Assembly (NCBI GenBank): GCA_903847465.1
Contig: CAINDQ010000093.1
Location: 1 to 54,580, forward strand
Direction: 5' to 3'
From: an uncultured Candidatus Peregrinibacteria bacterium
GTDB taxonomy: Bacteria > Patescibacteriota > Gracilibacteria > UBA1369 > LOWO2-01-FULL-3
DNA: 54,580 bases
The translations under genes and the position numbers were made by a program. The notes beneath the pieces are model-generated. The model saw nothing but the letters and a program-made list of their open reading frames with translations, was not told where the DNA came from and searched no databases. Shown here one piece after another: positions 4,113 through 32,902 of the stretch (positions are counted from its first letter, which is position 1; every line of letters begins with the position of its first letter).

Positions 4113-4270
4113 AATTTATTATCATTTGTAGTCGAATACGATATAGATAACGATCTTATTTTAACTTGAGTACTAGTTAAGAGTTTTATTTTTAATATTA
4201 CTTTTTCCCAAAAAGTCTGGTAGACTCCGTGTTAATATCAAAAAATATAAGCTTAACCTCTCAAGCTCTT

Positions 4271-9019: not shown

Positions 9020-9119
9020 AAGGGTTTGAAATCGTAGATTAAATGAAGACCCTTAGGAGGAATCTTAGGGGTTTTCTTTTGGGTGGTAAAACTCTCTAAA
9101 TAGGCCCGCTTTTTTGGCC

Positions 9120-9148
9120 TTGGAAAAAAGACGGTTTTGTGGTAAAAT
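9120..9148 (+). promoter_or_regulatory. promoter candidate, TTGGAA-17 nt-TAAAAT
   Basis: Hexamers lie at 9120-9125 and 9143-9148. They are followed by the leader GATAAATTTGAAATAAAAA, which is duplicated upstream of the next giant gene. Confidence 0.4.
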
Positions 9149-9182
9149 ATTGAGATAAATTTGAAATAAAAATAAACACGTC

Positions 9183-12100
9183 ATGAGGTTTCGAAATGTT
9201 GTTTCAAAAATAATTATTATTGCGCTTGTTTCAGTGATGGTTCCAACAGGAACTGTTCTAGCTGCAAATACGTGTGCTTCGACGGGAGTAAATGGCGATT
9301 GGAATACCGCTACAACATGGACCAATTGCGGTAGCACTGTGCCACAAGAAGGAGATGACGTTTCGATAGGTCATGCTGTTTCCATTGGCAATTACTCGAT
9401 TAATCGAGTTGCTAATATCACGATTGCAAGTGGAGGAACGCTGACTCAAAACAATACAAATACTCAGACGATTGCGGGGATTTTGACTATACAAAGTGGA
9501 GGAACGTTGACTCATGGAAATAACGCCGGAACGTTGGCTTACAAAGTTGATTTCAGCGCAGTGACTATTGATGTGCAAAATGGCGGTACAATCGATGTCA
9601 GTGGTTTAGGGTATGACGGTGGTGGTTCTGGGGCGAATGGTTCTGGACCAGGTGGAGGATTTAGTCCCGGTGGTTGTACGTATACTTACGGTGGTGGTGG
9701 TGCTCATGCCGGAAATGGTGGAGCGTCTAACGGAGCCGGTGGAACAGCATATGTTACTACTGCGGCACAAATTGGTACTGAATTAGGATCCGGTGGTGGT
9801 GGTGGTGATTGTAGGGCTGGTGGGGCCGCCGGTGGCGGCTTGGTAAAACTTACTGCTTCCGGAACGGTGACCGTCAATGGTTCAATTACGGCAAATGGCA
9901 ATAATGCTACTGGTGACAGTATGGGTGGAGGTGGTGGCGGTGCCGGTGGTTCAATTAGAATTACTGCATATACTGTAGCTGGCACTCCGACTGCGATGGA
10001 AGTAAAAGGAGGAACAAAAGGAACTGGTGGGGCGAATGGAGGAGGAGGTGGTGGTGGTGCTGTTTACATTGGCTATGAATACACTAGTTCTTCTAGCATT
10101 GTTCTCTCAAATATTTCTAAAGGTGGTGGTACCGGTGCCAATCCTGGTGGTGAAGGATTTTTTTGGTTAGAGCCGTTAAACGCTCCAGTTGGAGGGGCTC
10201 ACAATTGCGTTTCTGCTAATTCAAATACTGATTGGAATAATATTTTTACCTGGACTGGGTGTGGCGGAACTGTTCCACAAGTTGGTGATAATGTAACGAT
10301 TATTTCTCCTGTTAATATCGGCGCATATGTTATTAATCAAGTGGCGAATATTACAATCGGAAATGGCGGAACTCTTTCTCAAAACAATTTAAGTACTCAA
10401 ATTATTTCAGGAACATTAACTGTGCAAAATGGTGGAACTTTTACTCACGGAGACAATGCTGGAACGCTGGCTTACGAAATTGATTTTAGTGCGGCGACTA
10501 TTGATGTGCAAAGTGGAGGTGTAATAAATGCCGACGGAAAAGGATATGACGGTGGTGGTTCTGGTGTTGACGGCTCTGGACCAGGTGGAGGAATCCACCC
10601 CGGTGGTTGTACGTATACCTACGGTGGTGGTGGTGCTAATTTCGGGGATGGCGGAGCATCTAATGGGGCTGGAGGAACACATTATCTTCATACTTCTGCG
10701 GACATTGGTACTGACTTGGGATCTGGTGGTGGTGGTGGTGATTGTAGAGCTGGCGGTGCGAATGGTGGTGGAATAATAAAACTTAATGTTTCAGGAACTT
10801 TGACTATTACTGGTTCGATTACTGCCAATGGCAATAATGCTACCGGTGACAGCATGGGCGGTGGTGGTGGTGGTGGTGGTGGTGCCATTAGAATTAATGC
10901 TGACACAATTACCGGAACTCCGACTGCTTTGAAAGCTACAGGAGGAACAAAGGGCTCTGGCGGAGCCAACGGTGGTGGTGGTGGTGGTGGTGGAATTTAT
11001 ATTGGTTACAACACTACTAATTCTGTTTCCGCAGCTGGCGCTTATTTTTCTGTTGCGGGTGGAACTGGTGCTAATAATGGCGGTGCTGGTTTGCCTATTT
11101 TGGAAGAAACAGCTCCGACAAATACATGTATTTCGACTGGAACAAACAGCGACTGGAATACAGCTGCCGCATGGAGTCTTTGCAGTGGTGGCGTTCCACA
11201 AGTTGGAAACAATGTGAGAATTTCTCATGCTGTTGCCATAGGGAGTTATACGATTAATCAAGTTGCAAATATTACAATTCGAAACGGAGGAACTCTGACT
11301 CAAAACAATGCTTTGACTCAAACGATTTCCGGATCTTTGACTGTACAAAGTGGAGGAACTCTTACTCATGGAGATAACTCTACAACGCAAGCATTCAAAG
11401 TTGATTTCAGTGCGGCGAGTGTGGATGTACAGCTTGGAGGTGTAATAAGTGCCGATGGAAAAGGGTATGATGGAGGAACTAGTAATGTACATAACAATGG
11501 CTATGGCCCTGCTCCTGGTATAGGAAAAGATGGTAATGGATATCAGGCTGGTAGTGGTGGTGGACATGGTGGAAATGGTGGAACGACTACGGATGGAGAT
11601 GTTGGCGGCACAGCTAATGGAGACGTCACTAATCCGGCGACAATTGGTTCCGGCGGTGGTGCGGCTGGAGGTGGAGTTGGAGGTAGTGGCGGAGGGTTGA
11701 TTGTTTTAAATGCAACCGGAAGCGTTACTGTCGCTGGCACAATTACTGCGGATGGTACGAATGGAGGAAATGGTAGCAACTCAAGTGCTGGTGGTGGTGC
11801 TGGTGGTGGTATCAAAATTGTGGCAGATTCTATTTCTGGAACTCCAACAAGTTTTACCGCAACAGGAGGAACTAGTTATGGTGTTGTATATGCTAGCAGA
11901 AATGGAGGAGGTGGTGGTGGTGGTATTATTTATATTCAATACACAACAGGATCAAATACTTTTGACCCTACCGCTGGATATTTCAGTATGAAAGGCGGAA
12001 CTGGTGCCGGCGCTGGTGGTGCCGGAGTTACATATGTCAAAAAAGTAAGTGTTAGTGACGACTTGTATATTATCAACGGAGCTACGGTTGGGGCGGATTC

Positions 12101-15100
12101 TCCTCAGGTAGCAACGTCTATTACTGCAACAACTGTAACTATTAAAAGTAATGCGGTTTATTCTCTGACAACCGGAAAAACTCTAACATTAAGTAGCGCG
12201 ACTAGCGTTGCAAATGGCGATGGGACTGGAACTTTAAAAGTTTCAACCGGAACATTAACTACTCCAAGCACTTTCACTGTTAAGGATTTTATCTTGGAAA
12301 TTTGGAACACAGGAATAATCACAGATTCGAATTTAGTGGACATGACTCTTGATGGAACATCTAATACCGTCAAAGGTATCTTGGATATGCGAAGCTTTAC
12401 AACTTCTGCATCACTCGCTCTAAAATCATTAACTGTGGGCACTGTCTCTTCTGGATATGGAAAAGTAACCCATGGAGATAATTCAACTGCTCAAACAAAT
12501 ATTATTAACATAAGTACAACCAATGATTTAACCATTAACGCAAATGGTTTGGTTGACGCTGACGGCAGAGGGTATGATGGAGGAACTAGTACTCATAATA
12601 ATGGATACGGTCTCGCCCCTGGTATAGGAAAAGACAACAATGGATATCAGGCCGGTAGTGGTGGTGGACATGGTGGCAATGGTGGAGTGACCACTGATGG
12701 AGCCCTTGGTGGCACAGCTAATGAAAACGCCACTAACCCAGCAACTATCGGATCTGGTGGTGGTGCGGCCGGCGGTGGTCCTGGTGGCGCCGGCGGTGGA
12801 TTAATCATTCTTGACGCTGGAGGAACTGCTAGTATTAGTGGCACAATTACTGCCGATGGTACGAATGGAGGAAATGGCAGCAACTCAAGTGCTGGTGGTG
12901 GCGCTGGTGGTGGTATCAAAATCACCGCGGCTACCGTAGCTGGCACGCCAACATCAATGACCGCAATTGGTGGTAATAGTTATGGCGTTGTATATGCTGG
13001 CAGAAATGGTGGTGGTGGTGGTGGTGGTGTTATTTATGTTGGATACACTAGTGGTAATTCAATTTCTTCATCTGCTGGATACTTTTCTGTCGTAGGTGGA
13101 ACTGGCGCAGGACCCGGTGGCTCTGCTGGCGCTTCTTCTGTAACCGAAATAATTCCAGTAAACACATGCGCTTCAACTGGAACAAATGGCGATTGGAATA
13201 CTGCTGCCACATGGAGTAATTGTAGTGGCGGAGTACCACAAGTTGGAAACAATGTGAGAATTTCTCATGCCGTTGCCATAGAAAGTTATACGATTAATCA
13301 AGTGGCCGATATTACAATTCGAAGCGGAGGAACACTTACTCAAAACAATACAAATACTCAAACGATCACCGGGACACTGACCATACAGAGCGGGGGCGTT
13401 TTGACGCATGGAAATAACTCTACGAGTCTTTTGTATAAAGTTGATTTTAGTGCGGCAACTATTGATGTACAAAGTGGAGGGTCAATTAATGCAAGTTATT
13501 TGGGTTACGATGGTCAGAATGGATCCGGCAAAGGTGTTGATAGCCCTTATGATCGGGGCGCTGGTGGTGGCGCTCACGCTGGTAATGGCGGATATGCCTA
13601 TAATGCATTGGGTGGCACTAACAACTACAGTAGTTTTACTAATCCAGCCACGATTGGTTCTGGTGGCGGTTTAGGTATTGGTTATGCTTCTGGTGGGGCC
13701 GGTGGTGGTTTAATTATTTTGAATTCTTCTGCAACTACAACTATCAATGGCACTATTACTGCCAATGGAAGTGCTGGCGCAAATAATGCTAATGGTGGTG
13801 CTGGTGGTGGTGCTGGTGGTGGAATTAAAATTACAGCCAATGCTGTCGAGGGAACACCCCAAAGTTTTTCAGTTGCTGGTGGTGCTGGTGGTGGGCCTAG
13901 CTACTATGGTGGTGGCGGTGGCGGCGGCGCTGTATTGATTAATTTTGCAAATACAAATAGTATTTTAGGTCCAAATATTTCTATGAGTGGTGGCTCTGGT
14001 TATACTTATGGTGGAGCTGGCGTTGCCTATATCAAACAAACTGGCACGCATGGTAGTCTTTATTCTATCAATGCTGTAAGCAGTGAAAGCACACTTCAAT
14101 TTGATTCTTCTTTAACGGTAGACAATCTTTATCTTTCAAATTCCAGTTTCGTTGTCGCTTCTACTAAGGCGATGATTATAGAGACTACTACACCTTTTAG
14201 TATAATGCCGGATGGTGTTAGTTTGGGCACCTTGAGAATCTCTGGTGGCACCTTGACTACGCCAAATAATTTTTCCATAACATCTTCAACTTTAGAATTT
14301 TGGCAAACCTCTAATTGGACCAACTCATCATCTCTACAATTAACAGTTGGTGCTAGTGGTACTTTTTCTATGGGGTATTTCACAACTATTACGCCTTGGA
14401 ATATTAATTCTTTAGTGGTTAGTAATGGTGGAACTGTAACTCACGTAGCTAATTCCTCCGCTCAAACTCACATTGCAAATATTTCAGCTACAACAATTGA
14501 CGTACAATTTGGTGGTTCGATTAATGTTAATGGTAAGGGATATAGTGGACAACAAGGAACCGGTAAAGGCGCTGATAGCCCTTACGATCAGGGCGCTGGT
14601 GGTGGTGCTCACGCTGGTAACGGTGGCAATGCCTATCGTGCACTAGGTGGTACTGCTTACGGCAGTTCTACTAATCCAGCCACAATTGGTTCTGGTGGTG
14701 GAAAAGGAATTGGTGGTGGTTTCGGGGGAGCTGGTGGTGGGTTAATCATTTTGAATTCTTCTGCAACTACAACTATCAATGGAACTATTACTGCCAATGG
14801 TGGCAATGGCATATTTAATTCTACTGGTGGCGGTGGTGGTGGCGCCGGAGGTGGAGTTAAAATTACAGCCAATGCTGTTGAGGGAACACCACAAAGTTTT
14901 TCAGTTGTTGGTGGAGTAGGTGGTGGAGCGGATTACGGCGGCTATAATGGTGGCGGTGGTGGTGGCGGATTTGTTTATATTGAATATACAATCTCTAATT
15001 CCATATCTTCTTTAGCCGGATATTTTTCTGTTGCAGGGGGAACCGGTCGTGCAAGTGGCGGCGCAGGTTCACCACTTTTTCAAGTATCAAATTCCTCACC

Positions 15101-18100
15101 AGTTTCTACTGTTGCAAATGATTCAGTCGCGCAATCAACTGATGCGAGTGGATACTTAACGTTTGATGTTGCGGTTTCTGATTCCGACTCAGATGATGTG
15201 AAATTAAAAGTAGAATATTCTGACGATGATGGAGTCACTTGGTATGATCCATTATTATTGTCCGCAAACTTGTCTTCTGAGACGGCAGACTTGGACAATT
15301 CAGGCACATATCAAATCGGTTCGGTAGATGGAATAGAAACTGCTTCTGAAAATACCTTAACGATAGTTTGGGATACAAAATCTGCAAGTAATGGAAATGG
15401 TTCGCTAGATATTATTGAAAATTCAAACATAAAAATTCGCGTGACACCGAACGATGGAACGATTGATGGAACGGCTCAAACATCAAACGCATTCGCGATT
15501 GATAACGCGGCCCCTTCTGGCACAACGGCGCTTTCTTCAGGCTTGCAAACAAGCTCTTCTGTTTCGTTAACATGGGATGCTTCTACTGATGCAAATTTTT
15601 CTAAATACGAAATCTGGCATGGAGAAATTCTAAATGATGTCGAAAACAAAACAGGCACAGCCGCAAAATGGGACGATATAAACGACGTAAATCTTGCGAC
15701 CATCTCGACAACTTCTACCGAAATTACTGGACTCGCCATAAGCACTTCTTTTTACTTTAAAATATTTGCCATCGACACATTCGGAAATATTTCGACAGTC
15801 GATGCGTTCCAAGTTTCAACATTGGCAAGTTCGCAAGGGTCACCAACTGTAACTCCTTTATCAACTTCTGAATTGAATGTGGTGATCGATCAAGGATCGA
15901 ATCCTTTGTCTGCCGAATACGCAATAAAAATAGGTGATAATTATGTTCAGGCGGGAGGAACTTTGGACACCACGGAGGCATGGCAAACTTATGACACGTG
16001 GGGCGGAGCTTTGGGTCAAAATGTGACAGGCTTATCCCCAAATACTCAATACGCAGTTTCTTCGAAAGCACGAAATTCTGAGAACATCGAGACCGCATTA
16101 TCGGATAGCGTTTCTGTTTATACTTTGGCGTCTCCTGTTTCAAATATAGTGCTCACAAATGCGAGTACAAATTCCGAATACAAACACACTGTGTCTTGGG
16201 AAAATGCTGATCAGACTGGAATAAAAATCGACACTTCCGTCGTCCAAGATGGAGCATGTGATGATTCTTTCGGAACAAATTTGTATGACAACGCTACAAC
16301 AAATCAAAGTTATCCATTCGAAAATTCTGCAACTGCAAACACCTGTTATCGAGTCAGAATTCTTTCTTATAATGGTGATGGAATATTGAATACGAATGAC
16401 GCCGCGGTCAGTAATGATTTAATTACTCCGCCATCATCCGTATCTAATATTCACACAACAGCGGCAAGCGAGACCTCTATCACTTGGGCTTGGAATGCAG
16501 TTACTTCTGCCACAAATTACAAAGTGTATTTGAGTGATGACACTTTAGTTGGCGAAACAGGAACTGCAGACACTTCATATACAATGTCCGATCTTTCTCC
16601 AAATGTTGAGTATAGCGTTTATGTGCGAGCGGCAAATGATAACGGAGAAGGAATTACAGTTGCTCCGGTGTCCGCATACACAGACGCAAATGCTCCCGTA
16701 AATCTTGGTCATACTCAAGGTTCGCAAGCAACAACAGATATGCTATGGACTTGGGAATCTAGTGGCACGGAATTTTTTGCATCGATGCCTGATCAATCAC
16801 TTGATAGTGGCTGGACGACTGATCTTTCTTGGGGAGTCGTTGGACTTGCTCCGAATAATTTATATGAATTTTTTGTGAGAGCTAGAAATGTTGAATTAGT
16901 GGAAACTGCTGACTCAAATTATTCTGCATACACTTCTCAAAACCCTCCTGATTCCATTTCTTTCAGTGATCTTTCCTCAACTTCTATCACCGCAACCGCG
17001 AATGGAACTTTTGAAAATTTAACACTTGGGGATTCGGGAATTAAATTCATAAACACCACTACTTCGGCTCAAAATATTTCGCAACAAACCTCTTGGATTA
17101 ATTCTTCGCTCTCTCCAAACGCGCAATACACATATCGAGCAAGTGCGCTGAATGGCAATGGAGATGAAAGTTCTAATGTCGAAAATTCTGTGTACACTTT
17201 GGCGAATATTCCAAGTGCGCCTGTGGCAAGTAATGCAACTGGTGCGACCATTGATCTTGCCGTCAGCGTGAATGGAAATCCTGGCACAACAAATTATGTA
17301 ATTCACGAAACTACTCTAAATAAATATGTTCAAGCGGATGGATCATTGGGAGATTCTGAAAACAAAAATACAGCAACTTCTTTCACAATTACGGGACTTT
17401 CCCTCGATACAAATTACACCTTCGAAGTGAAAGCATTTAATGGCGACGACGTGGAAACGGCTTATTCTACAGCAACTTCTGCTTCGACGACGGCGAACGC
17501 ACCTTTGACTCCGGTTCTTTCCACTCCTACGGCAACTACTATCTCCATTACTCTGGATGGAAATGAAAATCCTCTAAACACACTTTACAACATCTACGAA
17601 TCCGTACTTTTGAAATATGTTAAATTGGCAACTCTTGCTTTGGACGTGAGTGCTGATTGGCAAACTATGGACACGTGGGGATTTGTTTCTGGAATTAGCG
17701 GAAGCTTGATTGTGACAGGACTAACTCCAAATACTCAATATACTTTCTCTGCTGCATCGAAAGATAATGAGGGAAGAATTTCTGAATATTCTTCCACTGC
17801 GGCTCTGCGCACTTTGGCCGCTACGCCAACAAGTGGCGTCGCTACACTCGATGGAAATTCCGTAACTCTTACTTGGGATGCGAATGGAAATCCGTCCGGA
17901 ACTAATTATTTTATCCTGAAAGATTCAGCACCTTTGGCTTCGACTACAAATACGACATACACGGATACGCTCTCTGGATATGCGACTTATGCTTATTCTG
18001 TTTATGCACAAAATGTGGACTTGAGCGATACTGGTTCGCTGACCTTGGGAGAGGTGATTTACACTGCGCCAACCTGTAGTTCTTTTACGTATAGCGATTG

Positions 18101-19502
18101 GAGTGCGTGCGTGGATGGAGCGAAAACTAGAACGGTTTCGACCTCCAGTCCAGAAAGTTGTGTCGGAGGAACGCCGGTTTTGGAGGGAAGTTGCAGTAGC
18201 GGAATTGTTATTTTTCCTCCTCCAAGAATTGTGGTGCCACCGGTCGTCGTTGTGCCTCCGGTTGTTGAACCGCCAGTTGTTGTGCCGCCAGTTGTTGTGC
18301 CTCCGGTTGTTGAACCGCCAGTTGTTGTGCCGCCGGTTGTCGTGCCACCGGTTGTTGTGCCGCCAGTTGTTGTGCCGCCAGTTGTTGTGCCGCCAGTTGT
18401 TGTGCCGCCAGTTGTTGAACCGATTTTGAAACCGCTGGTCGACATTGATCCGCCAGAAGATTCTCAGCCACCGACTGATTCTCAACCACCAGCTACTGAC
18501 GCTGAAACGGACTCAACTTCTACCGCAGATGAGGTGTTGGCAAAATTTATTGGAGGTGATGGTGACAATCCTGTCATAGATTTTGCGCTCGTGGATAATA
18601 CAAAAATGTACGAGAGGGGTTCTTATAGCAATGTTCTTTTGGAACTAATTGTTGAGGACAAAGAAGATTGTTTAGGAAATAAAGCCATGAGTTGTCTGGA
18701 AAAAGCTTATGGCCTGGATAAGGTTAAGAGAAAAAATCAGGGAGAAAAAAACTCATCAATTTTAACAGAAAAAGAAATTGGGGACGCCGTAGTTTTCAAC
18801 AAAAAACCTGGAGAAATTGTAACAATTCCAAGGCTTGTAAATCTGAATGGAACTGTGGGAAGCAATCCGGCAATTCTTGCTGTGTCTGCTCCGAACGATC
18901 AATTATTTGTGAGAATAAATACTGTTCCAGTAATGACTATTCAAGGTTATTCTGACGAAGAGGGCAAGGCTGTTTTTGGCTTATCACAGAGCTTAATGAG
19001 CGGAGATTATTCTGCTGAAATATACGCAGTAAGAAAAGGCGTGGCGGTAAATGGGAACAAAACCAACTTCACTGTCGACAAGGAAATTGATAATAATTTC
19101 TATATTTCCGACATGGTCGTGACAGAAGAAGATGCTCATGAACCATATGCCGGAGAGGCTGGGAAATTTGTAACCTTCGTTTTGAATTTAGCAGAAAATT
19201 ACGAACCAAAATTCGTGGCAATAGACTATATCGAATTCACAAAAACAGGAGGAAAAGTTTACGTTGTCACTGGCAACGTGGATCAAACTCAAGGTGGTGA
19301 AAATGCGATCGTATATCTTGCTTTCAAGAGTGTGACGTTTGGTTCTGCGGTAATCTCGGACGCTAGCCAAAAGGGTTCGTTCAAAATGATGGTGCCGAGA
19401 GGACTTGGAGCCAATTCTCATACTTTGACTGCCTACGCTTTCGATCCAAAAACAAATGCTTCTACGAATGCGAAAAAGGCGGCGTTTGTGATCAAGAAAT
19501 AG
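9183..19502 (+). CDS. giant secreted/surface protein (3439 aa)
   Basis: Uninterrupted 10.3-kb ORF. Signal peptide MRFRNVVSKIIIIALVSVMVPTGTVLA.
- Six Gly-rich beta-helix-like modules start at ~9266, 10199, 11118, 12470, 13158 and 14440 (C-x-S-x-G-x-W-N...VPQ-x-GD...GGTLTHGDN...GYDGG...GGGG runs).
- About nine FN3-like repeats span ~15490-18060 (S-L/I-T-W, Y-x-V/I, Y-T-L ends).
- A Cys motif, YSDWSACVDGAKTRTVS...C, lies at ~18068-18200.
- A 15-nt PPVVV repeat and a C-terminal ~320-aa domain are shared with the next gene. Confidence 0.9.
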   Translation: MRFRNVVSKIIIIALVSVMVPTGTVLAANTCASTGVNGDWNTATTWTNCGSTVPQEGDDVSIGHAVSIGNYSINRVANITIASGGTLTQNNTNTQTIAGILTIQSGGTLTHGNNAGTLAYKVDFSAVTIDVQNGGTIDVSGLGYDGGGSGANGSGPGGGFSPGGCTYTYGGGGAHAGNGGASNGAGGTAYVTTAAQIGTELGSGGGGGDCRAGGAAGGGLVKLTASGTVTVNGSITANGNNATGDSMGGGGGGAGGSIRITAYTVAGTPTAMEVKGGTKGTGGANGGGGGGGAVYIGYEYTSSSSIVLSNISKGGGTGANPGGEGFFWLEPLNAPVGGAHNCVSANSNTDWNNIFTWTGCGGTVPQVGDNVTIISPVNIGAYVINQVANITIGNGGTLSQNNLSTQIISGTLTVQNGGTFTHGDNAGTLAYEIDFSAATIDVQSGGVINADGKGYDGGGSGVDGSGPGGGIHPGGCTYTYGGGGANFGDGGASNGAGGTHYLHTSADIGTDLGSGGGGGDCRAGGANGGGIIKLNVSGTLTITGSITANGNNATGDSMGGGGGGGGGAIRINADTITGTPTALKATGGTKGSGGANGGGGGGGGIYIGYNTTNSVSAAGAYFSVAGGTGANNGGAGLPILEETAPTNTCISTGTNSDWNTAAAWSLCSGGVPQVGNNVRISHAVAIGSYTINQVANITIRNGGTLTQNNALTQTISGSLTVQSGGTLTHGDNSTTQAFKVDFSAASVDVQLGGVISADGKGYDGGTSNVHNNGYGPAPGIGKDGNGYQAGSGGGHGGNGGTTTDGDVGGTANGDVTNPATIGSGGGAAGGGVGGSGGGLIVLNATGSVTVAGTITADGTNGGNGSNSSAGGGAGGGIKIVADSISGTPTSFTATGGTSYGVVYASRNGGGGGGGIIYIQYTTGSNTFDPTAGYFSMKGGTGAGAGGAGVTYVKKVSVSDDLYIINGATVGADSPQVATSITATTVTIKSNAVYSLTTGKTLTLSSATSVANGDGTGTLKVSTGTLTTPSTFTVKDFILEIWNTGIITDSNLVDMTLDGTSNTVKGILDMRSFTTSASLALKSLTVGTVSSGYGKVTHGDNSTAQTNIINISTTNDLTINANGLVDADGRGYDGGTSTHNNGYGLAPGIGKDNNGYQAGSGGGHGGNGGVTTDGALGGTANENATNPATIGSGGGAAGGGPGGAGGGLIILDAGGTASISGTITADGTNGGNGSNSSAGGGAGGGIKITAATVAGTPTSMTAIGGNSYGVVYAGRNGGGGGGGVIYVGYTSGNSISSSAGYFSVVGGTGAGPGGSAGASSVTEIIPVNTCASTGTNGDWNTAATWSNCSGGVPQVGNNVRISHAVAIESYTINQVADITIRSGGTLTQNNTNTQTITGTLTIQSGGVLTHGNNSTSLLYKVDFSAATIDVQSGGSINASYLGYDGQNGSGKGVDSPYDRGAGGGAHAGNGGYAYNALGGTNNYSSFTNPATIGSGGGLGIGYASGGAGGGLIILNSSATTTINGTITANGSAGANNANGGAGGGAGGGIKITANAVEGTPQSFSVAGGAGGGPSYYGGGGGGGAVLINFANTNSILGPNISMSGGSGYTYGGAGVAYIKQTGTHGSLYSINAVSSESTLQFDSSLTVDNLYLSNSSFVVASTKAMIIETTTPFSIMPDGVSLGTLRISGGTLTTPNNFSITSSTLEFWQTSNWTNSSSLQLTVGASGTFSMGYFTTITPWNINSLVVSNGGTVTHVANSSAQTHIANISATTIDVQFGGSINVNGKGYSGQQGTGKGADSPYDQGAGGGAHAGNGGNAYRALGGTAYGSSTNPATIGSGGGKGIGGGFGGAGGGLIILNSSATTTINGTITANGGNGIFNSTGGGGGGAGGGVKITANAVEGTPQSFSVVGGVGGGADYGGYNGGGGGGGFVYIEYTISNSISSLAGYFSVAGGTGRASGGAGSPLFQVSNSSPVSTVANDSVAQSTDASGYLTFDVAVSDSDSDDVKLKVEYSDDDGVTWYDPLLLSANLSSETADLDNSGTYQIGSVDGIETASENTLTIVWDTKSASNGNGSLDIIENSNIKIRVTPNDGTIDGTAQTSNAFAIDNAAPSGTTALSSGLQTSSSVSLTWDASTDANFSKYEIWHGEILNDVENKTGTAAKWDDINDVNLATISTTSTEITGLAISTSFYFKIFAIDTFGNISTVDAFQVSTLASSQGSPTVTPLSTSELNVVIDQGSNPLSAEYAIKIGDNYVQAGGTLDTTEAWQTYDTWGGALGQNVTGLSPNTQYAVSSKARNSENIETALSDSVSVYTLASPVSNIVLTNASTNSEYKHTVSWENADQTGIKIDTSVVQDGACDDSFGTNLYDNATTNQSYPFENSATANTCYRVRILSYNGDGILNTNDAAVSNDLITPPSSVSNIHTTAASETSITWAWNAVTSATNYKVYLSDDTLVGETGTADTSYTMSDLSPNVEYSVYVRAANDNGEGITVAPVSAYTDANAPVNLGHTQGSQATTDMLWTWESSGTEFFASMPDQSLDSGWTTDLSWGVVGLAPNNLYEFFVRARNVELVETADSNYSAYTSQNPPDSISFSDLSSTSITATANGTFENLTLGDSGIKFINTTTSAQNISQQTSWINSSLSPNAQYTYRASALNGNGDESSNVENSVYTLANIPSAPVASNATGATIDLAVSVNGNPGTTNYVIHETTLNKYVQADGSLGDSENKNTATSFTITGLSLDTNYTFEVKAFNGDDVETAYSTATSASTTANAPLTPVLSTPTATTISITLDGNENPLNTLYNIYESVLLKYVKLATLALDVSADWQTMDTWGFVSGISGSLIVTGLTPNTQYTFSAASKDNEGRISEYSSTAALRTLAATPTSGVATLDGNSVTLTWDANGNPSGTNYFILKDSAPLASTTNTTYTDTLSGYATYAYSVYAQNVDLSDTGSLTLGEVIYTAPTCSSFTYSDWSACVDGAKTRTVSTSSPESCVGGTPVLEGSCSSGIVIFPPPRIVVPPVVVVPPVVEPPVVVPPVVVPPVVEPPVVVPPVVVPPVVVPPVVVPPVVVPPVVVPPVVEPILKPLVDIDPPEDSQPPTDSQPPATDAETDSTSTADEVLAKFIGGDGDNPVIDFALVDNTKMYERGSYSNVLLELIVEDKEDCLGNKAMSCLEKAYGLDKVKRKNQGEKNSSILTEKEIGDAVVFNKKPGEIVTIPRLVNLNGTVGSNPAILAVSAPNDQLFVRINTVPVMTIQGYSDEEGKAVFGLSQSLMSGDYSAEIYAVRKGVAVNGNKTNFTVDKEIDNNFYISDMVVTEEDAHEPYAGEAGKFVTFVLNLAENYEPKFVAIDYIEFTKTGGKVYVVTGNVDQTQGGENAIVYLAFKSVTFGSAVISDASQKGSFKMMVPRGLGANSHTLTAYAFDPKTNASTNAKKAAFVIKK
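18231..18422 (+). repeat. in-frame 15-nt tandem repeat (about 13 units) encoding (PPVVV/PPVVE)n
   Basis: Unit GTGCCGCCAGTTGTT and close variants. Four consecutive perfect copies lie around 18355-18415. Confidence 0.9.
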
Positions 19503-19528
19503 ACAGTGAATCCTCGCCCATTTTCGAC

Positions 19529-19558
19529 TTGAGCAAGGATGGCTTTTTGTGTTATAAT
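19529..19558 (+). promoter_or_regulatory. promoter candidate, TTGAGC-18 nt-TATAAT
   Basis: Hexamers lie at 19529-19534 and 19553-19558. They are followed by the same GATAAATTTGAAATAAAAA leader as at 9153. Confidence 0.45.
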
Positions 19559-19606
19559 ATTATGATAAATTTGAAATAAAAACAAAAATACTAAAGCAAA
19601 CCCATC

Positions 19607-28600: not shown

Positions 28601-31600
28601 ATGCTTGGGTTATTTTCGGCGGCTTTGGTTAGGGGAAATTCTGATACGGATGTAGATGTTACTTTGCTTGATTTCAGCGACAGTGATTTTCAAGATCAAG
28701 AAATGATCGATTTTTTCGAGACTGAAAGTTTGTGGTCAGTTGGTGGTGTTTCACCTATTTCTGCAACATTGGAAGCTCCGATTCTTCATCTTGTTTTTGA
28801 TCAACCTGTGAGTTCTGACTCTACACTGCTATGGGATTTGTCAGATCCATTTGAGGTTGAGGGAGTATATGCTGGAGCGGTGATTCAAGGAAGTGATGAT
28901 CATGAATTTATTATCAATTTGGATTGGGACGGTTGGGCTGGAAATCCTATTGGTATCCAGTTTAACTATGGAGTTATATCTCCAAATGGCGACTCGTCCG
29001 ATGTATTTATTGAGGTCGCAGAGCCGGGAACTTACACTGTGTATGTTCCTCACTTAGAAGGAGAAACAAATGTTTCAATTTCACTATTTTCACAATCTGA
29101 TCCTGGTCTTGATGGTCCTGATATCGTTTGGTTCTACGGAGAGTCTCCTGAGATTTCCGGGAGCGGACCTACTACTCTGAATTTTGACATGGATGATCCT
29201 AGTTATATGCTTGGGAGATTTTCGGCGGCTTTGGTTGAGGGAAATTCTGATACGAATGTAGATGTCACTTTGATTGATTTTAAGGAAGAAGACTTTCAGG
29301 ATCAGAGAATGATTGATTGGCTTGAAACTGAAAGTATATGGGCAGTTGATGGGGTTTCACCTATTTCTGCAGCATTGGAAGCTCCGATTATTCATCTTGT
29401 TTTTGCTCAACCCGTGAGTTCTGACTCTACACTGCTATGGGATTTGTCAGATCGATTTGAGATTGAGGGAGTATATGCAGGAGCGGTGATCCAAGGAAGC
29501 GATGCTCATGAATTTACTATTAATTTAGATTGGGAAGGATGGACTGGAGCTCCGATAACTATCGGATTTGCATATGGAAACGCTTCGGCGCCTGATGCAA
29601 AAGATCTGAATGGATTTATTGAGATTGCAGAGCCAGGAACATACACTATGTACGTTCCGCACGTAGAGGGTGAAACAAATATTACGATTCAGAGTGTTTC
29701 TTGGTCAAGTTTAGATCTCTTTAATGCAGATGAGTATGCGGATGTCGTTTGGTTTTACAATAGTGCCCCTGAAATTTCGGGCCCGGGACCAACAACGATA
29801 AATATGGACATGGATGTTCCTAGTTATATGATTGGAGTTATGTCGGCTGGATTGGTTGATGGAAATTCGGATGAAAACGTGGACGTTACTTTGCTCCTTT
29901 TTAGCGATGAGGATTTGCAAGATCAAGGTATGATAGATTTTTTTGAGACAGAAAGTTCATGGTTGGTTGATGATGTTTCGCCTGTGTCTGCAGTTTTGGA
30001 AGGAGACATTGTTCATTTGATTTTTGATCAGGCTGTGAATTCCGATTCCACCATTTTGCTAGATTTATCATCCTTGGTTGAAGCTCCGTTGTTTGCTGAA
30101 GCAGTGATTCAAGGAGATGGAAGCATTGCTTTTACCGATGCGAGTCTTGAAACATGTGTAAGAAGTGCTTTGGGTGGGGATTTCTGGGCGGATCAGGACA
30201 CTCCGATTACGGAGGATGACGCTTTGGACCTTACCATGCTTACTTGCGAGAGCGACTCTATTTCTGACCTAACCGGGTTGGAATATTTTACAAATTTAAC
30301 TTATTTAGATCTTCTTGATAATTCAATTAGCGACCTAAGTCCTTTGAGTGGATTGGATTCTTTAACTAATTTAAATCTTGGTTGGAATTCAATTAGCAAT
30401 ATTGGCCCTTTGAGCAATCTTGATTCTTTGGCCTATTTAACTATTCATGCCAACTCAATCAGCGACATCAGTCCTTTGAGCGGGATGACTGCTTTGGAAG
30501 GCCTATACATTGGCGCAAATTCTATTAGCGACATCAGTGTTTTGAGCGGATTAACTGCCTTGAGATATGCATATCTTTACAGCAATTCAATTAGCGATAT
30601 TGAACCTTTGGTTCAGAACGCTGGACTGACTGATGGAGACTCAATCTACTTGAGTGGAAATCCGTTGAGCGACGAATCTTTCACCTTTATTGCAACACTT
30701 ATGGAACGTGGCGTTAACGTTGATTATGATGTGCCAACTTGTACTTCGTTCACATATAGCGATTGGAGTACGTGTGTGGATAAAACAAAAACTAGAACCG
30801 TTTCGACTTCGAGTCCGGAAGGATGTACGGGAGGAACACCAGTTTTGGAAAGCACTTGTGGCGGGGGAGGACTTATTATTACTGATGTAGATCCTCCAGT
30901 GATTGATCCACCAATTGTTGATCCGCCAATTGTTATTCCGCCGATTGTTATTCCACCTGTCGTGGATCCACCTATTGTTATTCCACCTGTTGTTGATCCA
31001 CCAATCGTGATTCCACCTGTCGTTGATCCGCCAATTGTTGTTCCACCGGTCATTGATCCTCCGATTGTTGATCCACCAGTTGAACCGCCGGCTGTTATTG
31101 ATCCATCAATTGTTATTCCTCCTCCATCTCCATATATCCCAAATTTCACAGTCAACGATATCGTAGAAATATATCACAGCGGTTCTTATGGCAATATATT
31201 CTTGAAGTTGGTTGTTGATGACAAAAAGGATTGTTTGGGAGATAAAGCGATGAACTGTTTGGAGAAAATTTATGGAGTTACTCAATCTCAAGAAAGTGAA
31301 ATTGGTGATGCAGTTGTTTTTGGAAAACAACCTGGAGAAATTATCACGACACCTAGACTCGTAAACCTAAAAGGAATCGTTGGAAGCAATCCGGTGATTC
31401 TGGCGGTATCCGCGCCGAATGACAAACTTTTTGTGAGGATTAATACCGTTCCAATGATGACCATTCAAGGTTATTCCGACGCAGAGGGAAAAGCTGTTAT
31501 GGGCTTAACACAGCCACTAAGGAGTGGTGATTATTCTGCCGAAATATATGCTGTCCGAAAAGGTGTGGCAGTACTTGGGAACAAAACAAATTTCACGGTT

Positions 31601-32026
31601 GATCAACAAGTTGATAACGAATTCTATATTTCCAACATGGTTGTTACAGAAGAAGATGCTCACGCTCCATATGCTGGAGAACCTGGGGAATTCGTGGCAT
31701 TTATCTTAAGTTACGTTGAGAAATTTGAACCAAAATTCATTGCTCTAGACTATATCGAATTCACAAAAACAGGTGGAAAAGTTTACGTGGTTACAGGAAA
31801 TGTTGATCAAACTCAAGGCAGTGAAAACGCTATCGTATATCTTGCATTCAAGAGTGTGACATTTGGTTCTGCGGTAATCTCGGATGCTGGACAAAAAGGT
31901 GCATTCAGAATGGTTGTTCCGAAAGGACTTGGAGCCAGTTCTCACACTTTGACGGCTTATGCTTTCAATCCAAAAACAAACGTTTCTACCAGTGCAAAGA
32001 AGGCGGCGTTTGTGATCAAGAAATAG
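19607..32026 (+). CDS. giant leucine-rich-repeat surface protein (4139 aa)
   Basis: Uninterrupted 12.4-kb ORF. The signal peptide is nearly identical to that of the previous gene.
- Eight LRR blocks, each opened by an F-A-D-A-N-L-E-A-C-V-R cap, start at ~19715, 21125, 22610, 23505, 24440, 25460, 27280 and 30138.
- Five Myxococcus-type Cys-rich repeats (C-G-N...C-D-D-G-N-N-x-x-G-D-G-C-S-x-x-C-Q) lie at ~20400, 22365, 23405, 24362 and 25382.
- C-T-x-P-D-A-E-N-Y-D-P-S-A-D-T-D-D-G-S-C mini-repeats are present.
- Five copies of a ~200-aa unknown domain are present.
- A DPPIV stalk and a shared C-terminal domain close the protein. Confidence 0.9.
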   Translation: MRFRNVVSKIIIIALVLTMLPTGTVFAADITSEITNASLLACVRTALTISEPTPITDNDAAALTSLDCSGLGITSAAGIEYFTGLTSLDLNGNQLTTINLSTNTALEILDLGANNLSTIDLSLNTALTDLTLYQQGNLTAISLSTNTALTSVNLANNFLTTIDVSDNTALTSLALQGNDLTTIDVLLNTSLSYLDISGNNITDISSLVANAGITGSGDTIDVRNNPLNLTSFADIGTLSGRGVNVTYNTYCGNNNVEYWNDWSEQCDDGNNTSGDGCSDTCQNEGGGMPPEWNVDGADDHEIIVNVSFPEWTQYPILVAGWYGDATDGAPDGYVAISSPGTAHIYVPHVEGQTTVMISALWWNSPTIGGNPARMGSYATPISIAGNGPDTIDVTLNETGGSGSNLTDAWVDDEAGSTTFYALFDGNSIPGGDLSSYITIQNRAGTVLSAFLQSNPIEYNGTTYTDQVVVGTYSETVVPGDVLLVDGQPDTGIVYYGGAGPTDIVFADANFEACVRGNFGIDEFTAVTDVDAETLTSLSCGEMGITDATGIEYFTNLTYLYMGANSLTTIDLSANTALEELNLAFNSLTTIDLSANTALESLFLDSNNLTSIDVSANTSLINLYLSNNALTTIDVSANTVLYFLFLNGNDLTSVNLSGATALNHLWLDSNALTTVDVSENTALTELWLQNNTLTAIDVSDNTALTELNLQNNALTTINVGENTALTDLNISDNTLTTIDVSANTVLYSLSLYSNNLTSINVSGATALRYLYLNDNAFTSIDVSGATTLTTLVLNDNALTSITAGAALTTLYLESNNLTDASIVSGLTSLNNLTLANNSITDISDLSGLTSLESLALNNNSISDIEPLLGNAGIGSNDYVDFSGNPLDSVLADLYILAGRGVFVTYDWVCSNELVEWPETCDDGNNTDWDGCSATCQIEGCTDGSADNFDPSAVVDNGTCLFPDPPEDIWGCTDSGAENWDPSANMDDASCTYPPTPVEITFTDANLEACVRTALEIPTDPITDEDALTLESLDCSPPDDSTPEFPITDLTGLEYFTNLTGLDLGYNSISDLGPLSGLTNLTSLNLFYNYSIGDISDLSGLTSLTSLDIGDNSISDLSPLSGLTSLTYLVASGNYIADWDPLSDLTSLTYLDLQASQISDLGPLSSLTSLTQLNLYNDGVSDLTPLIGLTSLGYLELGRNYVSDVGPLVDNVGFGAGDNISLTNNPLNLASLVDIGILGSRDVYVGYDWVCGNSVIDVEEDESVGFETCDDGNNDDGDGCSAICQIEEGGGDPDPVEITFVDENFEACVRDALDIPTDPITENDAAALTDLNCSNSGITSTAGLEYFTGLTSLNLESNALTTLDVSANTALTYLHLEFNSLASLDVSQNTDLIYLDLYGNALTSIDVSANTALDYLTLSANALTEIDVSQNTALSALWLNYNDLTEIDVSHNTALQHLSLFHNELTSIDVSANTALDYLDLSNNALTEIDVSNNTALDTLVLNSSNLTTIDVSVNTDLRELYLNNNNITDIGSLVANAGITGSGDFVYLNGNSFNLTSLADINTLIARDVHVNYDQVCGDEVVQEPETCDDGNNTNGDDCSAICQVEVEIEFADANLEACVRTALEIPTDPIMDTTVLGRTTLSCNGRSISDLTGLEYFVDLDTLDLSNNTITDVSPLSGLTTLVDLYLDGNSISNADALSGLTSLYNLSLYDNSISSIGDWSGLNSLHYLNVRNNSISDISNLASLTTLTELGIGYNSISNISVLSGLTDLTNLEASNNSIIDVHPLSGLHLTTLHLNNNSIVSVYPLSAMTSLTFLNLSDNFINSTNDFRWLFNLTYLNLGDNAIRNVSSLEWLTNLNTLQLPNNLISDITPLVSNAGIGTGDTVTLIGNSLNLASVAHVGTLVGRGATVPYNYVCGNSAVEGTETCDDGNNTSGDGCSSTCQTEVEITFADANFEACVRDALEIASPTPITNSDAVTLTSLSCSTAEINSADEIEYFTDLDTLELGWNNLTSIDVSHNTALTDLELYDNHLTSIDVSANTALTDLNIGWNDLTSVDLSHNTALRYFDASGNTLTTIDVSANTSLLSLNLEYNTLTSIDVSANTALTYLELGINNLTSIDVSTNTNLDTLDLEENYLSTIDLSNNSVLRYLRLKENDLTTIDLSGGIALENLDLRDNDLTAIDVSTNTALTSLTLNGNSISDISSLGELMSLHTLFLDGNSITDIQPLVDNAGLGSGDGVGLSYNPLSDESINVLIPELEGRGVTVFYEVYGSPWEVPTGDDHEIILNVNWSEWVKGPISVMFYYGTAWGNGQPSGMATMGSPGTIHLYVPHVPGQEFVTPIAFWQGAHDSNLMGLTDPVSILDNGPTTVDINMGEYFTSTLVSGNSDNEIEARFFTDLPNDQETIDAFQNVNLWTVEGVSPLSVVIDGVRTIHFVFENDIVAGAILVMDDHVGGILSSTIQAGEIPDPILGCTNPDAENYDPSADTDDGSCTFAPILGCTSPDAENYDPSADTDDGSCTYAPILGCTNPDAENYDPSADTDDGSCTFAPGPVEVVFADPNLEACARTILGIPEPTPITSTDAQSISAYFTCHNSVTDLTGMEYFTNLVNMDFNGNSISDLSPLAELTALTELHIVSNSITDISVLSGLPNLARLQIGNNLITDISPLAGLTHLYELNLSNCSPDETNNLISDISPLSGLTSLTNLGLCGVSVTDISPLAGLTSLLELELRANNISDITPLASLTDLRTLQLGGNQISNITPLAGLTHLTSLDIGQNSISNIGALSNLTSLTSLTLGWNSIVDISPLSGLTSLTNLQLNTNSIVNIGVLAGLTHLSNLTLDCNPLDAGSIALIGTLTGQGVTVDYDESLTGCGGGGDGGGDGGDDSADFSVPTGDDHVFTINLDWDDWAGNPIGILFTYGDVSSDGNSLDGFIEVAEPGTYTAYVPHVEGETNVSISLFSQSDPGLDGPDIVWFYGTSPSISGAGPTTLNLDMDTSSYMLGLFSAALVRGNSDTDVDVTLLDFSDSDFQDQEMIDFFETESLWSVGGVSPISATLEAPILHLVFDQPVSSDSTLLWDLSDPFEVEGVYAGAVIQGSDDHEFIINLDWDGWAGNPIGIQFNYGVISPNGDSSDVFIEVAEPGTYTVYVPHLEGETNVSISLFSQSDPGLDGPDIVWFYGESPEISGSGPTTLNFDMDDPSYMLGRFSAALVEGNSDTNVDVTLIDFKEEDFQDQRMIDWLETESIWAVDGVSPISAALEAPIIHLVFAQPVSSDSTLLWDLSDRFEIEGVYAGAVIQGSDAHEFTINLDWEGWTGAPITIGFAYGNASAPDAKDLNGFIEIAEPGTYTMYVPHVEGETNITIQSVSWSSLDLFNADEYADVVWFYNSAPEISGPGPTTINMDMDVPSYMIGVMSAGLVDGNSDENVDVTLLLFSDEDLQDQGMIDFFETESSWLVDDVSPVSAVLEGDIVHLIFDQAVNSDSTILLDLSSLVEAPLFAEAVIQGDGSIAFTDASLETCVRSALGGDFWADQDTPITEDDALDLTMLTCESDSISDLTGLEYFTNLTYLDLLDNSISDLSPLSGLDSLTNLNLGWNSISNIGPLSNLDSLAYLTIHANSISDISPLSGMTALEGLYIGANSISDISVLSGLTALRYAYLYSNSISDIEPLVQNAGLTDGDSIYLSGNPLSDESFTFIATLMERGVNVDYDVPTCTSFTYSDWSTCVDKTKTRTVSTSSPEGCTGGTPVLESTCGGGGLIITDVDPPVIDPPIVDPPIVIPPIVIPPVVDPPIVIPPVVDPPIVIPPVVDPPIVVPPVIDPPIVDPPVEPPAVIDPSIVIPPPSPYIPNFTVNDIVEIYHSGSYGNIFLKLVVDDKKDCLGDKAMNCLEKIYGVTQSQESEIGDAVVFGKQPGEIITTPRLVNLKGIVGSNPVILAVSAPNDKLFVRINTVPMMTIQGYSDAEGKAVMGLTQPLRSGDYSAEIYAVRKGVAVLGNKTNFTVDQQVDNEFYISNMVVTEEDAHAPYAGEPGEFVAFILSYVEKFEPKFIALDYIEFTKTGGKVYVVTGNVDQTQGSENAIVYLAFKSVTFGSAVISDAGQKGAFRMVVPKGLGASSHTLTAYAFNPKTNVSTSAKKAAFVIKK
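27011..27253 (+). repeat. near-perfect 81-bp x3 in-frame tandem repeat
   Basis: Units start at 27011, 27092 and 27173, exactly 81 nt apart. Each encodes P-I-L-G-C-T-N/S-P-D-A-E-N-Y-D-P-S-A-D-T-D-D-G-S-C-T-F/Y-A, with only a few substitutions between units. Confidence 0.95.
28289..30115 (+). repeat. three tandem ~606-bp (202-aa) repeats of an unknown domain
   Basis: The GATGATCAC/GATGATCAT/GATGCTCAT unit starts lie at 28289, 28895 and 29501, exactly 606 nt apart. Long stretches are almost identical between units 1 and 2, for example tcacaatctgatcctggtcttgatggtcctgatatcgtttggttcta. Confidence 0.9.
30889..31125 (+). repeat. in-frame 15-nt tandem repeat encoding (DPPIV/IPPIV/IPPVV)n
   Basis: GATCCACCAATTGTT-type units run from VDPPVIDPPIVDPPIVIPPIV... 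to ...IDPSIVIPPP. The position is analogous to the PPVVV repeat of the previous gene. Confidence 0.9.
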
Positions 32027-32089
32027 AGAGAGGATCGAATCGATCGACTGATGTTTTGCGCATGACCGCTACGGCTGTTATACTACGGT

Positions 32090-32902
32090 ATGGTTTTTAA
32101 CCTTATCATTATGCTTATTTTAAACAACCTAGATCCTGAACTTTTTAATTATGGAATTATTCATATCCGATGGTATGGATTATTTTTTCTAATTGGAATT
32201 ACGTTGTCGTACTTGATCACGAGATGGGCTTTCAAGAAAAATAAATTTCCTTTTGAAGATTTGGAAAGCATCGCTTTATACCTTTTTATTGGATTGATCG
32301 TTGGGGCGAGATTGGGACATGTTATTTTTTACGAACCACTTTATTATTTGCAAAATCCAAGCCAGCTTTTGGCGGTATGGAATGGCGGATTGTCCAGTCA
32401 TGGAGCCACTATTGGGCTTGTTTTGGCGTTTCTGCTTTGGTCTGCTATTCATAAAGTAAAATTCTCAAAATATGCAGATTTATTTGCATTAGGAATGCCT
32501 GTCGCGGCGATGTTCGTGAGAATTGGAAACTACTTTAATTCAGAAATATATGGGACGAAAACTGACGGACCTTTTGGTGTAGTTTTTGCCAGACTCGGCG
32601 AAGATTTTCCGAGACATCCGGCGCAATTGTACGAAGCCGATTTATTGTTGCTAACTTTTATTATTCTGTTTTTTGTTTACAAAAAATATTGGAAAAAATT
32701 GCCATCATTGTTTATCACTTTCTCTTTCATGTTCTTGTATTTCACGGGAAGATTTTTTATTGAATTTGTGAAAGACCTACACGGATTGCCAGCCGACTTT
32801 CCTTTATCTACAGGCCAAGTTTTGAGCATCCTGCCTGTGCTTTTAGCCATTGGTTATTTTCTTGTAATTATATGCAAAAGGCTACGCTGTTTAAAAAATT
32901 AG
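32090..32902 (+). CDS. lgt: prolipoprotein diacylglyceryl transferase
   Basis: Polytopic membrane protein with Lgt hallmarks: IHIRWYGLFF, GARLGHVIFYEP, WNGGLSSHGATIG, RIGNYFNSEIYG, HPAQLYEA. The start may instead be the internal Met at codon 8. Confidence 0.9.
   Translation: MVFNLIIMLILNNLDPELFNYGIIHIRWYGLFFLIGITLSYLITRWAFKKNKFPFEDLESIALYLFIGLIVGARLGHVIFYEPLYYLQNPSQLLAVWNGGLSSHGATIGLVLAFLLWSAIHKVKFSKYADLFALGMPVAAMFVRIGNYFNSEIYGTKTDGPFGVVFARLGEDFPRHPAQLYEADLLLLTFIILFFVYKKYWKKLPSLFITFSFMFLYFTGRFFIEFVKDLHGLPADFPLSTGQVLSILPVLLAIGYFLVIICKRLRCLKN

Follow-up and report, generated by a model that had tools for sequence, protein, structure and literature searches.

Wall-anchored surface proteins of Gram-positive bacteria, such as internalin A and M protein, are built in the order signal peptide, binding passenger, Pro-rich stalk and C-terminal element, and one such C-terminal element is found on many unrelated passengers. 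SLH, CWB2, GW and LysM are likewise folded terminal modules that are reused on several large surface proteins. Candidate Phyla Radiation (CPR) bacteria, or Patescibacteria, live attached to other microbes, and little is known about how they display huge host-contact proteins. Here we describe two neighbouring giant genes, A and B, on contig CAINDQ010000093.1 of assembly GCA_903847465.1, from an uncultured Candidatus Peregrinibacteria bacterium; the whole stretch analysed, 54,580 nt, is referred to as the window. Both predicted proteins follow the Gram-positive order and end in the same C-terminal domain (CTD) of about 307 aa. We propose, with a probability of about one half, that A and B are Sec-exported, modular, adhesin-like surface proteins that are retained on the envelope by this new C-terminal module.

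A giant extracellular protein with a hypervariable PTD repeat, encoded by an in-frame Pro-peptide nucleotide repeat, has been described in a Gracilibacterium that also encodes S-layer-domain proteins in the same genome, and CPR bacteria are monoderm, often have an S-layer and are host-attached (Sieber et al. 2019, PMC6851277). That study described no shared CTD for the PTD-repeat protein (PMC6851277).

In a BLASTN comparison of the A and B gene regions (9100-19502 against 19520-32026), matches to the head, to the Cys module and stalk, and to the CTD were recovered, three in total: a 5′ match (9135-9265 vs 19545-19689, 77.9% over 145 nt), a match over the Cys module and stalk (18065-18421 vs 30730-31074, 69.7% over 357 nt), and a 3′ domain match (18767-19502 vs 31291-32026, 80.3% over 736 nt). 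BLASTP aligned the two proteins only at their ends, over 306 aa at the C-terminus (73.9%) and 29 aa at the N-terminus (82.8%), and the middles gave no BLASTP match at E≤1e-3, in agreement with a preliminary description of this DNA that had reported unrelated middles between a common head and tail. The 5′ cassette common to A and B consists of a promoter-like site, a 19-nt leader and a signal peptide, and the 3′ cassette of a 4-Cys module, a Pro-rich stalk encoded by 15-nt repeats and the CTD. Elsewhere in the window, neither the head nor the Cys module nor the CTD occurs again. The genes and their shared parts are as follows.

9183..19502, + strand: gene A, an open reading frame (ORF) of 3439 aa
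19607..32026, + strand: gene B, an ORF of 4139 aa, neighbouring gene A
9120..9148, + strand: promoter-like site of gene A (TTGGAA, 17 nt, TG-n-TAAAAT), from a consensus scan
19529..19558, + strand: promoter-like site of gene B (TTGAGC, 18 nt, TG-n-TATAAT), from a consensus scan, 10/12 matches
9154..9172, + strand: 19-nt leader GATAAATTTGAAATAAAAA, A copy, identical to the B copy
19564..19582, + strand: 19-nt leader GATAAATTTGAAATAAAAA, B copy, followed by a 14-nt insertion relative to A
9183..9263, + strand: signal peptide of A, MRFRNVVSKIIIIALVSVMVPTGTVLA, predicted cleavage after VLA, then AN
19607..19687, + strand: signal peptide of B, MRFRNVVSKIIIIALVLTMLPTGTVFA, predicted cleavage, then AD
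18066..18200 (aa 2962-3006), + strand: 4-Cys module of A, the start of the common 3′ cassette (local hmmsearch, i-E 2.8e-23)
30731..30865 (aa 3709-3753), + strand: 4-Cys module of B (hmmsearch, i-E 7e-24)
18249..18417, + strand: Pro-rich stalk of A, (PPVVV)n, a 15-nt repeat of 11.3 copies with 87% matches (Tandem Repeats Finder, TRF)
30903..31082, + strand: Pro-rich stalk of B, (PP[IV][VI][DI])n, an in-frame 15-nt repeat of 12 copies with 72% matches (TRF)
18579..19499, + strand: CTD of A, 307 aa, ending AAFVIKK; helical cap, Big_13-like immunoglobulin (Ig) sandwich 1, beta/alpha insert and basic Ig sandwich 2
31136..32023, + strand: CTD of B, 73% aa identity to the CTD of A (tblastn)

The preliminary description had also put figures on the likeness of the ends. 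The 51 nt across the start codon and signal peptide (9181-9231 vs 19605-19655) differ at a single position, as it had stated, and the leader is indeed duplicated without change, the A copy beginning at 9154 rather than 9153. Its estimate of 85-90% nucleotide identity for the 3′ domains held for a sampled stretch (19262-19370, 86% in register) but not for the whole 3′ domain, which is 80% identical.

No Pfam-A or NCBIfam model matched the CTD, which ends AYAF(D/N)PKTN...KKAAFVIKK in A and B, above threshold; NCBIfam, including its sorting models for the type IX secretion system (T9SS), returned 0 families at E≤10 for both C-terminal fragments. A CTD profile gave 0 matches among PDB sequences, and no description of the domain was found in the literature. 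Big_13 (PF19077) scored 21 bits against the window CTD (cut-off 27, E 4.7e-4) and matched 12 of 34 CTD family members, the best at 1.5e-8. HMMER, run exhaustively over 1.84 billion representative proteins in a search of the kind that the preliminary description had called for, recovered 47 carriers at E≤1e-3 (23 at E≤1e-10), with the domain mostly terminal and behind unrelated passengers. Local re-scoring placed the CTD end 0-4 residues from the protein C-terminus in 44 of the 47, the exceptions (P0036, P0046 and P0047) being generic tandem-Ig proteins that match profile positions about 100-180 only. The passengers of full-length relatives were leucine-rich repeats (LRR), Lcl_C, right-handed beta-helix/NosD, FG-GAP, NHL propeller, fn3 and DUF11, and no SLH, LPXTG-type or other anchor was present in the 13 CTD proteins scanned. 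Such a position, together with unrelated passengers, is the distribution that would be expected of an anchoring or sorting module.

CTD clusters are tiny, with 1-3 members each. Two members carry NCBI names, both from 'Candidatus' metagenome-assembled genomes (MAGs), one of them Candidatus Gracilibacteria. A word-index protein search with the CTD returned four close fragments only, and the same four with the 34-sequence profile; a scan of genome contigs with the CTD alignment, using two peptide patterns that fit close relatives only, found no relative. The CTD is rare and, going by the labels available, restricted to a Gracilibacteria-type CPR lineage. A CTD fragment, P0004 (L001 29-829), carries the JGI name 'dTDP-4-dehydrorhamnose 3,5-epimerase-like enzyme', which looks like a mis-annotation to which sequence and model lend no support.

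Structure prediction followed by a Foldseek search, as suggested in the preliminary description, yielded a confident model and no known whole-structure match. The AlphaFold model of the A CTD, built on a 34-sequence alignment (A3), was compact, with a predicted local distance difference test score (pLDDT) of 90.4 and a predicted template modelling score (pTM) of 0.84, compared to a pLDDT of 40 from a 5-sequence alignment. Helices at residues 7-73, which include a conserved Cys pair that aligns with TSP3-like Asp loops of distant members, precede a beta-sandwich (91-166), a strand with two helices (174-223) and a second beta-sandwich (226-304), and both sandwiches have the Big_13 signature (ADAsG..., G.H.LtayA.D). 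Foldseek returned only generic tandem Ig/FN3 proteins (CNTN FN3, SiiE BIg, RbmA, KIR), with template modelling (TM) scores of ≤0.31 against PDB and ≤0.29 against BFVD. The CTD is an undescribed composite domain of Big_13-like parts; on the model, these parts are predicted to be ordinary Ig sandwiches and the assembled CTD to be without a known counterpart. The building blocks of the fold are thus of the common kind that the preliminary description had thought could speak against anchoring, but the domain is strictly C-terminal and not scattered as that objection had supposed. For the last Ig, catalysis by Ser/Asp/His and an ester-bond motif were both considered and rejected, the conserved S, D, Q, G and H fitting the ordinary Big_13 signature.

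These features set the CTD apart from the described terminal modules. As the preliminary description had stated, neither A nor B has an SLH, LPXTG or terminal transmembrane anchor: SLH (PF00395) has no match in A or B and is present in the protein of the neighbouring gene (4229-9019), a regex scan of A and B found no LPXTG-type motif ([LIVN]Px[TSA]G), and no hydrophobic tail is seen, the last 40 aa of both being a hydrophilic beta-strand sequence. Unlike LPXTG proteins, which A and B resemble in order, they also have no charged stop-transfer sequence and end in a folded domain, so that attachment would be non-covalent. The difference from SLH, CWB2, GW and LysM lies in the absence of a sequence match and in a helical cap with Ig sandwiches in place of the SLH helical fold. 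Big_13 domains usually form interchangeable tandem arrays anywhere in a protein, whereas the window CTD combines two Big_13-like units, a helical cap and a beta/alpha insert in one fixed arrangement that is conserved and strictly terminal. Type I secreted RTX adhesins of the LapA/SiiE type, which are marked by RTX nonapeptide repeats, a C-terminal type I signal and the lack of an N-terminal Sec signal, also differ, since A and B have signal peptides and no RTX/HemolysinCabind match.

The 4-Cys module (45 aa; CxxFTYSDWSxC...R...SSPExCxGGTPVLExxC in A and B) was found in nine copies in seven CTD proteins (A, B, P0002, P0008, P0016, P0018 and P0021, the last with three copies), N-terminal to the CTD in every case. 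Alignment of the nine copies showed 12 invariant positions (C6 Y11 W14 C17 R24 P31 C34 G36 G37 P39 L41 C45), among them all four Cys, one Trp and one Arg. The preliminary description had called this motif thrombospondin-type-1-like, an assignment that the searches do not support and that would seem to be a likeness of pattern only: hmmscan of both C-terminal fragments gave no Pfam match to a thrombospondin (TSP) family even at E≤10, a profile of the nine modules matched no PDB chain at E≤10, and the same type of profile gave no match in the word-index protein search. The module resembles TSP_1 (PF00090) in being small (about 45 aa), Cys-rich and of W...C...R...C pattern. It differs in having four rather than six Cys and a single W, with no WxxW and no RxR ladder, and so is without the TSP1 hallmarks of six Cys, WxxW and an Arg ladder (CWR layers). 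A Pro-rich or acidic linker is always directly N-terminal to the CTD across the carriers, a place that the wall-spanning region takes in surface proteins of Gram-positive bacteria. Extensin (PF02095) gave 19.8 and 28.8 bits against a gathering threshold of 105 bits, a compositional match to the stalk only.

Between the last Cys-rich module (4-Cys or DUF4215) and the linker lies a junction (18201-18250 and 30866-30905 in the window) with the order Gly run (GGG/SSG), 4-6 hydrophobic residues (IVIF, LIIT, VVIVV, LIVL, VVLVL or VVMVIA) and a PP-rich stretch. It was also observed in P0002, P0005, P0015, P0016, P0018, P0022, P0028, P0034 and P0052, whose linkers are otherwise different, and could be a recombination or structural junction.

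At the 5′ end, the sigma-70-like sites with an extended -10 box stand at an equal distance to the leader in A and B, and the leader GATAAATTTGAAATAAAAA has no further copy in the window at ≤3 mismatches. No terminator-like site was found between A and B; a terminator-like hairpin lies at 9045-9076, after the upstream SLH gene. Judged by their pattern of n-, h- and c-regions, MRFRNVVSKIIIIALVSVMVPTGTVLA and MRFRNVVSKIIIIALVLTMLPTGTVFA appear to be cleavable Sec signal peptides. An n-region motif, (R/K)FR(N/K)(V/I)(V/L)S(K/N)I, is common to A and B and to P0014 and P0016, whose CTDs are only about 30% identical, and the SLH neighbour has a looser form of it, KRFVALCSIFVLIFTLIPTVLA; the motif may be lineage-typical or a specialised export signal.

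The passengers differ in kind. That of gene A has a G8/beta-helix-like N-terminus, Gly-rich repeats of ~311 aa (the 933-nt repeat family D8) and fn3 domains (Pfam G8, fn3), and that of gene B has LRR_4 (E 3.2e-171, 32 stretches), DUF4215 Cys repeats and other repeats (Pfam). Both whole proteins are very acidic (isoelectric point, pI, 4.36 for A and 4.05 for B), with a net charge of about -488 for B.

Under the proposed mechanism, A and B would have been built by duplication of the 5′ export and 3′ display cassettes around different passengers. Each gene would be expressed from its own promoter with the conserved leader, and the cleavable signal peptide would direct Sec export. The CTD would then hold the protein on the envelope by binding non-covalently to the S-layer or a wall polymer. 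A rigid spacer and junction would be provided by the Pro-rich stalk together with the 4-Cys module, knotted by disulfides, and the passenger, very acidic and of LRR or beta-helix type, would point outward and contact host or prey cells. Retention by the CTD is suggested because the signal peptide looks cleavable and no other anchor is present. An anchoring function is further suggested because the CTD is strictly terminal on unrelated passengers and under purifying selection (see below), and because a linker of the wall-spanning type stands directly before it and its terminal subdomain is basic (last 82 aa of the A CTD, pI 9.85, charge +5.8). C-terminal anchoring would also be the local norm, because the giant protein encoded upstream has a C-terminal SLH. 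From these observations we infer the retention on the envelope, the binding partner, the cleavage site, the monoderm topology and the spacer role.

Several points weigh against this proposal. Cleavage of the signal peptides is predicted from their pattern by eye, and envelope binding by the CTD is putative. Most known wall-binding modules are basic, and the CTD as a whole is mildly acidic (pI 5.3-5.7). Its building blocks are generic Ig sandwiches, the usual formers of adhesin stalks, and about nine genomic contexts contained no conserved partner gene (the neighbours were glnA, peroxiredoxin, ornithine decarboxylase, SecDF-PpiC, RF-1/PrmC, DnaG/sigma70/GreA/Lgt, ksgA, GAPDH and ArgS).

Two other functions for the CTD were weighed against retention on the envelope. 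It could be a distal or assembly module, acting in oligomerisation, fibre-tip binding or docking, of proteins that are held otherwise or released. The top Foldseek matches point that way, as tandem Ig/FN3 arrays resembling adhesin extender and matrix proteins (SiiE, RbmA) and phage fibres, and so does a CTD that is overall not strongly basic; with TM scores this low, however, these matches are generic. LRR and beta-helix passengers are themselves typical binding ends, the Pro-rich stalk adjoins the CTD and not the N-terminus, and a protein of 3400-4100 aa with a cleavable signal would, other anchors being absent, have only the CTD to retain it. We consider a distal role unlikely, if somewhat less so than a second possibility, that the CTD is a sorting or secretion signal read by a dedicated machine and perhaps cleaved or covalently attached, in the manner of T9SS or sortase signals. 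T9SS CTDs (Por_Secre_tail, TIGR04183) of Bacteroidota are likewise Ig-like terminal beta-sandwiches on unrelated cargo with Sec signals, and the extreme C-terminal position of the CTD on unrelated cargo, the conserved last strand of its terminal beta-sandwich, which carries basic residues (AAFVIKK; family consensus F-x-x-K), and the recurrence of the n-region motif in the distant P0014 and P0016 would all suit such a signal. At ~300 aa, however, the CTD is far larger than known sorting signals, about four times the size of T9SS CTDs, and is conserved over its entire length rather than in a terminal motif only. No sorting-domain model of NCBIfam or Pfam matches it even at E≤10, no processing gene is conserved nearby, and the CPR host is expected to be monoderm and, to our knowledge, CPR bacteria have no T9SS. 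A dedicated sorting machine is thus improbable, and retention on the envelope is the function that we favour for the CTD.

The preliminary description had further suggested that the shared ends are kept similar by gene conversion. Synonymous (dS) and nonsynonymous (dN) divergence was estimated by the Nei-Gojobori method, giving a dS of 1.04 and a dN of 0.136 (ratio about 0.13) between the A and B CTDs and a dS of 0.94 and a dN of 0.16 between the Cys modules. The longest identical run between the tails is 28 nt, and the repeat units of the stalks differ between A and B. Because dS is about 1.0, dN low and the longest identical run this short, the tails are best read, on these sequence comparisons, as old duplicates that have probably stayed alike through purifying selection on the protein, not through recent gene conversion, and this part of the suggestion fails. 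The head is much closer. In pairwise alignment, identity between A and B is 16/35 upstream of the -10 region, 34/38 over the -10 region and leader (A 9135-9172), 48/49 nt from the ATG and 27/44 beyond codon 17, and the head has 2 synonymous differences in 12.2 synonymous sites, compared to a proportion of synonymous differences (pS) of 0.56 in the CTD (binomial p = 0.006). This is compatible with 5′ conversion or, equally, with selection on the nucleotides of the promoter, leader and translation start. Ongoing conversion between A and B could apply to the head only, and as an explanation of the likeness it has a low probability.

Passenger swapping is supported by comparisons with other carriers, at the level of sequence. 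A third tail cassette, L006, lies at another locus with ksgA downstream and upstream sequence unlike A or B; it is 85.6% identical to B at the nucleotide level, its CTD differs from that of B by a dS of 0.39 and a dN of 0.025, and its tail groups with B and not with A. A single CTD subtype is found behind different passengers in P0014-P0017. More distantly, L091 encodes two proteins in tandem, one of 2150 aa with a beta-helix and one of 490 aa, whose common tail of 364 aa is 43% identical and whose signal peptides resemble each other weakly; an SLH protein is encoded 0.8 kb downstream. The notion of a common cassette with swappable passengers that arose by duplication is therefore sustained as regards the cassette, the different passengers and a third tail copy at another locus, and the anchoring role that went with it stays putative. 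Several carriers occur per community or genome, as seen for A, B and L006 and, independently, for the L091 pair. A distant relative offers a further tandem of two large beta-helix surface genes (L088 3488-11542), the first encoding the CTD protein P0018 and the second, with Beta_helix and DUF4215, running off the contig after >928 aa. Such tandem arrays seem common in the group.

Mis-assembly is a high risk in repeat-rich giant genes, and the preliminary description had allowed for the cassettes being an artefact of mis-joined repeats. JGI contig Ga0486121_45297 (1754 bp, sample 3300045671) is 100% identical to window positions 18602-20355, running from the end of A across the intergenic region into B, and JGI contig Ga0486122_58626 (26 kb, sample 3300045718) is 99.98% identical to 30090-34902, covering the end of B, lgt and the radical-SAM gene. 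Since the A-B and the B-lgt junctions are reproduced, one each, in two independent assemblies from other samples, and copies that are only 80% identical are too divergent for collapse or mis-joining, an artefact is very improbable.

What appears to be new here is the CTD family; modular surface proteins with a common C-terminal retention module are of a known kind, to which A and B would belong if the CTD has the function suggested. If so, the CTD is a candidate for a new envelope-anchoring domain that can be tested in vitro. The CTD hidden Markov model (HMM) offers a handle for listing the surface adhesin repertoire of uncultured organisms, and A and B a worked example of giant adhesin genes diversifying by middle swaps between fixed ends. 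If the CTD is only the conserved end of an Ig-type stalk, the locus is one of ordinary modular adhesin paralogy. A broader reading, which we regard as speculative and rather doubtful, is that the signal peptide and CTD form a surface-display system of Gracilibacteria/Peregrinibacteria, in which the CTD, as a new class of anchoring domain, would dock host-contact adhesins onto neighbouring SLH-anchored S-layer proteins and passengers would be exchanged through recombination at the Cys module/GGG/hydrophobic/PP junction.

The gene upstream of A is the following.

4229..9019, + strand: SLH/Calx-beta surface protein of 1596 aa (Pfam SLH 2.7e-12, aa 1472-1512; Calx-beta 4.3e-9)

SLH genes lie near CTD genes in three independent contexts: in the window, in L091 (9261-10649) and, with a faint match, in L093 (318-1619). 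This neighbourhood may be due to chance or to a functional S-layer link.

The host is a standard-code member of the Gracilibacteria/Peregrinibacteria CPR lineage. The Gracilibacteria label is given because Candidatus Gracilibacteria MAGs match the KorB-type 2-oxoacid:ferredoxin oxidoreductase beta subunit (43700-44554) at 84-92% identity (Peribacteria/Peregrinibacteria MAGs at about 58-62%) and because P0008 is a protein of an NCBI Gracilibacteria MAG. Genetic code 25 was considered and rejected: two well-supported ORFs terminate at TGA, and table 11 leaves the giant ORFs intact.

Over the whole window, Rfam matched a tRNA-Asp only. The GC content peaks at 40001-42000 (52.7%, about 41% elsewhere) over overlapping ORFs on both strands, including 40795-41499 (-) and 41177-41686 (-); the ORF at 40798-41499 had no NCBIfam match, and no Rfam match was found there. 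Three large ORFs (1826, 507 and 900 aa; 44573-51595 and 35196-37898) had no meaningful Pfam/NCBIfam match and no obvious signal peptide, the 507-aa ORF giving a PspA match far below threshold, and the 900-aa and 507-aa products have Pro/Ala/Gln-rich low-complexity tails. An AmmeMemoRadiSam system (32872-35175 and 37981-38535) comprises a radical SAM enzyme, a Memo-like protein and AmmeMemoSam_A (TIGR04335, 4.9e-58), and its genes are split by the Pro-rich 900-aa gene on the opposite strand (35196-37898).

Within the passengers, gene A contains at 9290-15050 at least 4 copies of the ~933-nt (~311-aa) repeat with 70-72% nucleotide identity and further copies spaced 1032 and 1104 nt (78-84%), each with Gly runs (GGGGGG) and an 'AGTPT..GG' motif. 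Gene B contains three tandem 81-nt repeats at 27007-27255, which are 87-93% identical and encode Cys motifs of the DPILGCTNPDAENYDPSADTDDGSCTF type, with a diverged fourth copy 4.5 kb upstream (22498-22584), and a separate duplication spaced 606 nt (28289-28588 and 28895-29194, 83%).

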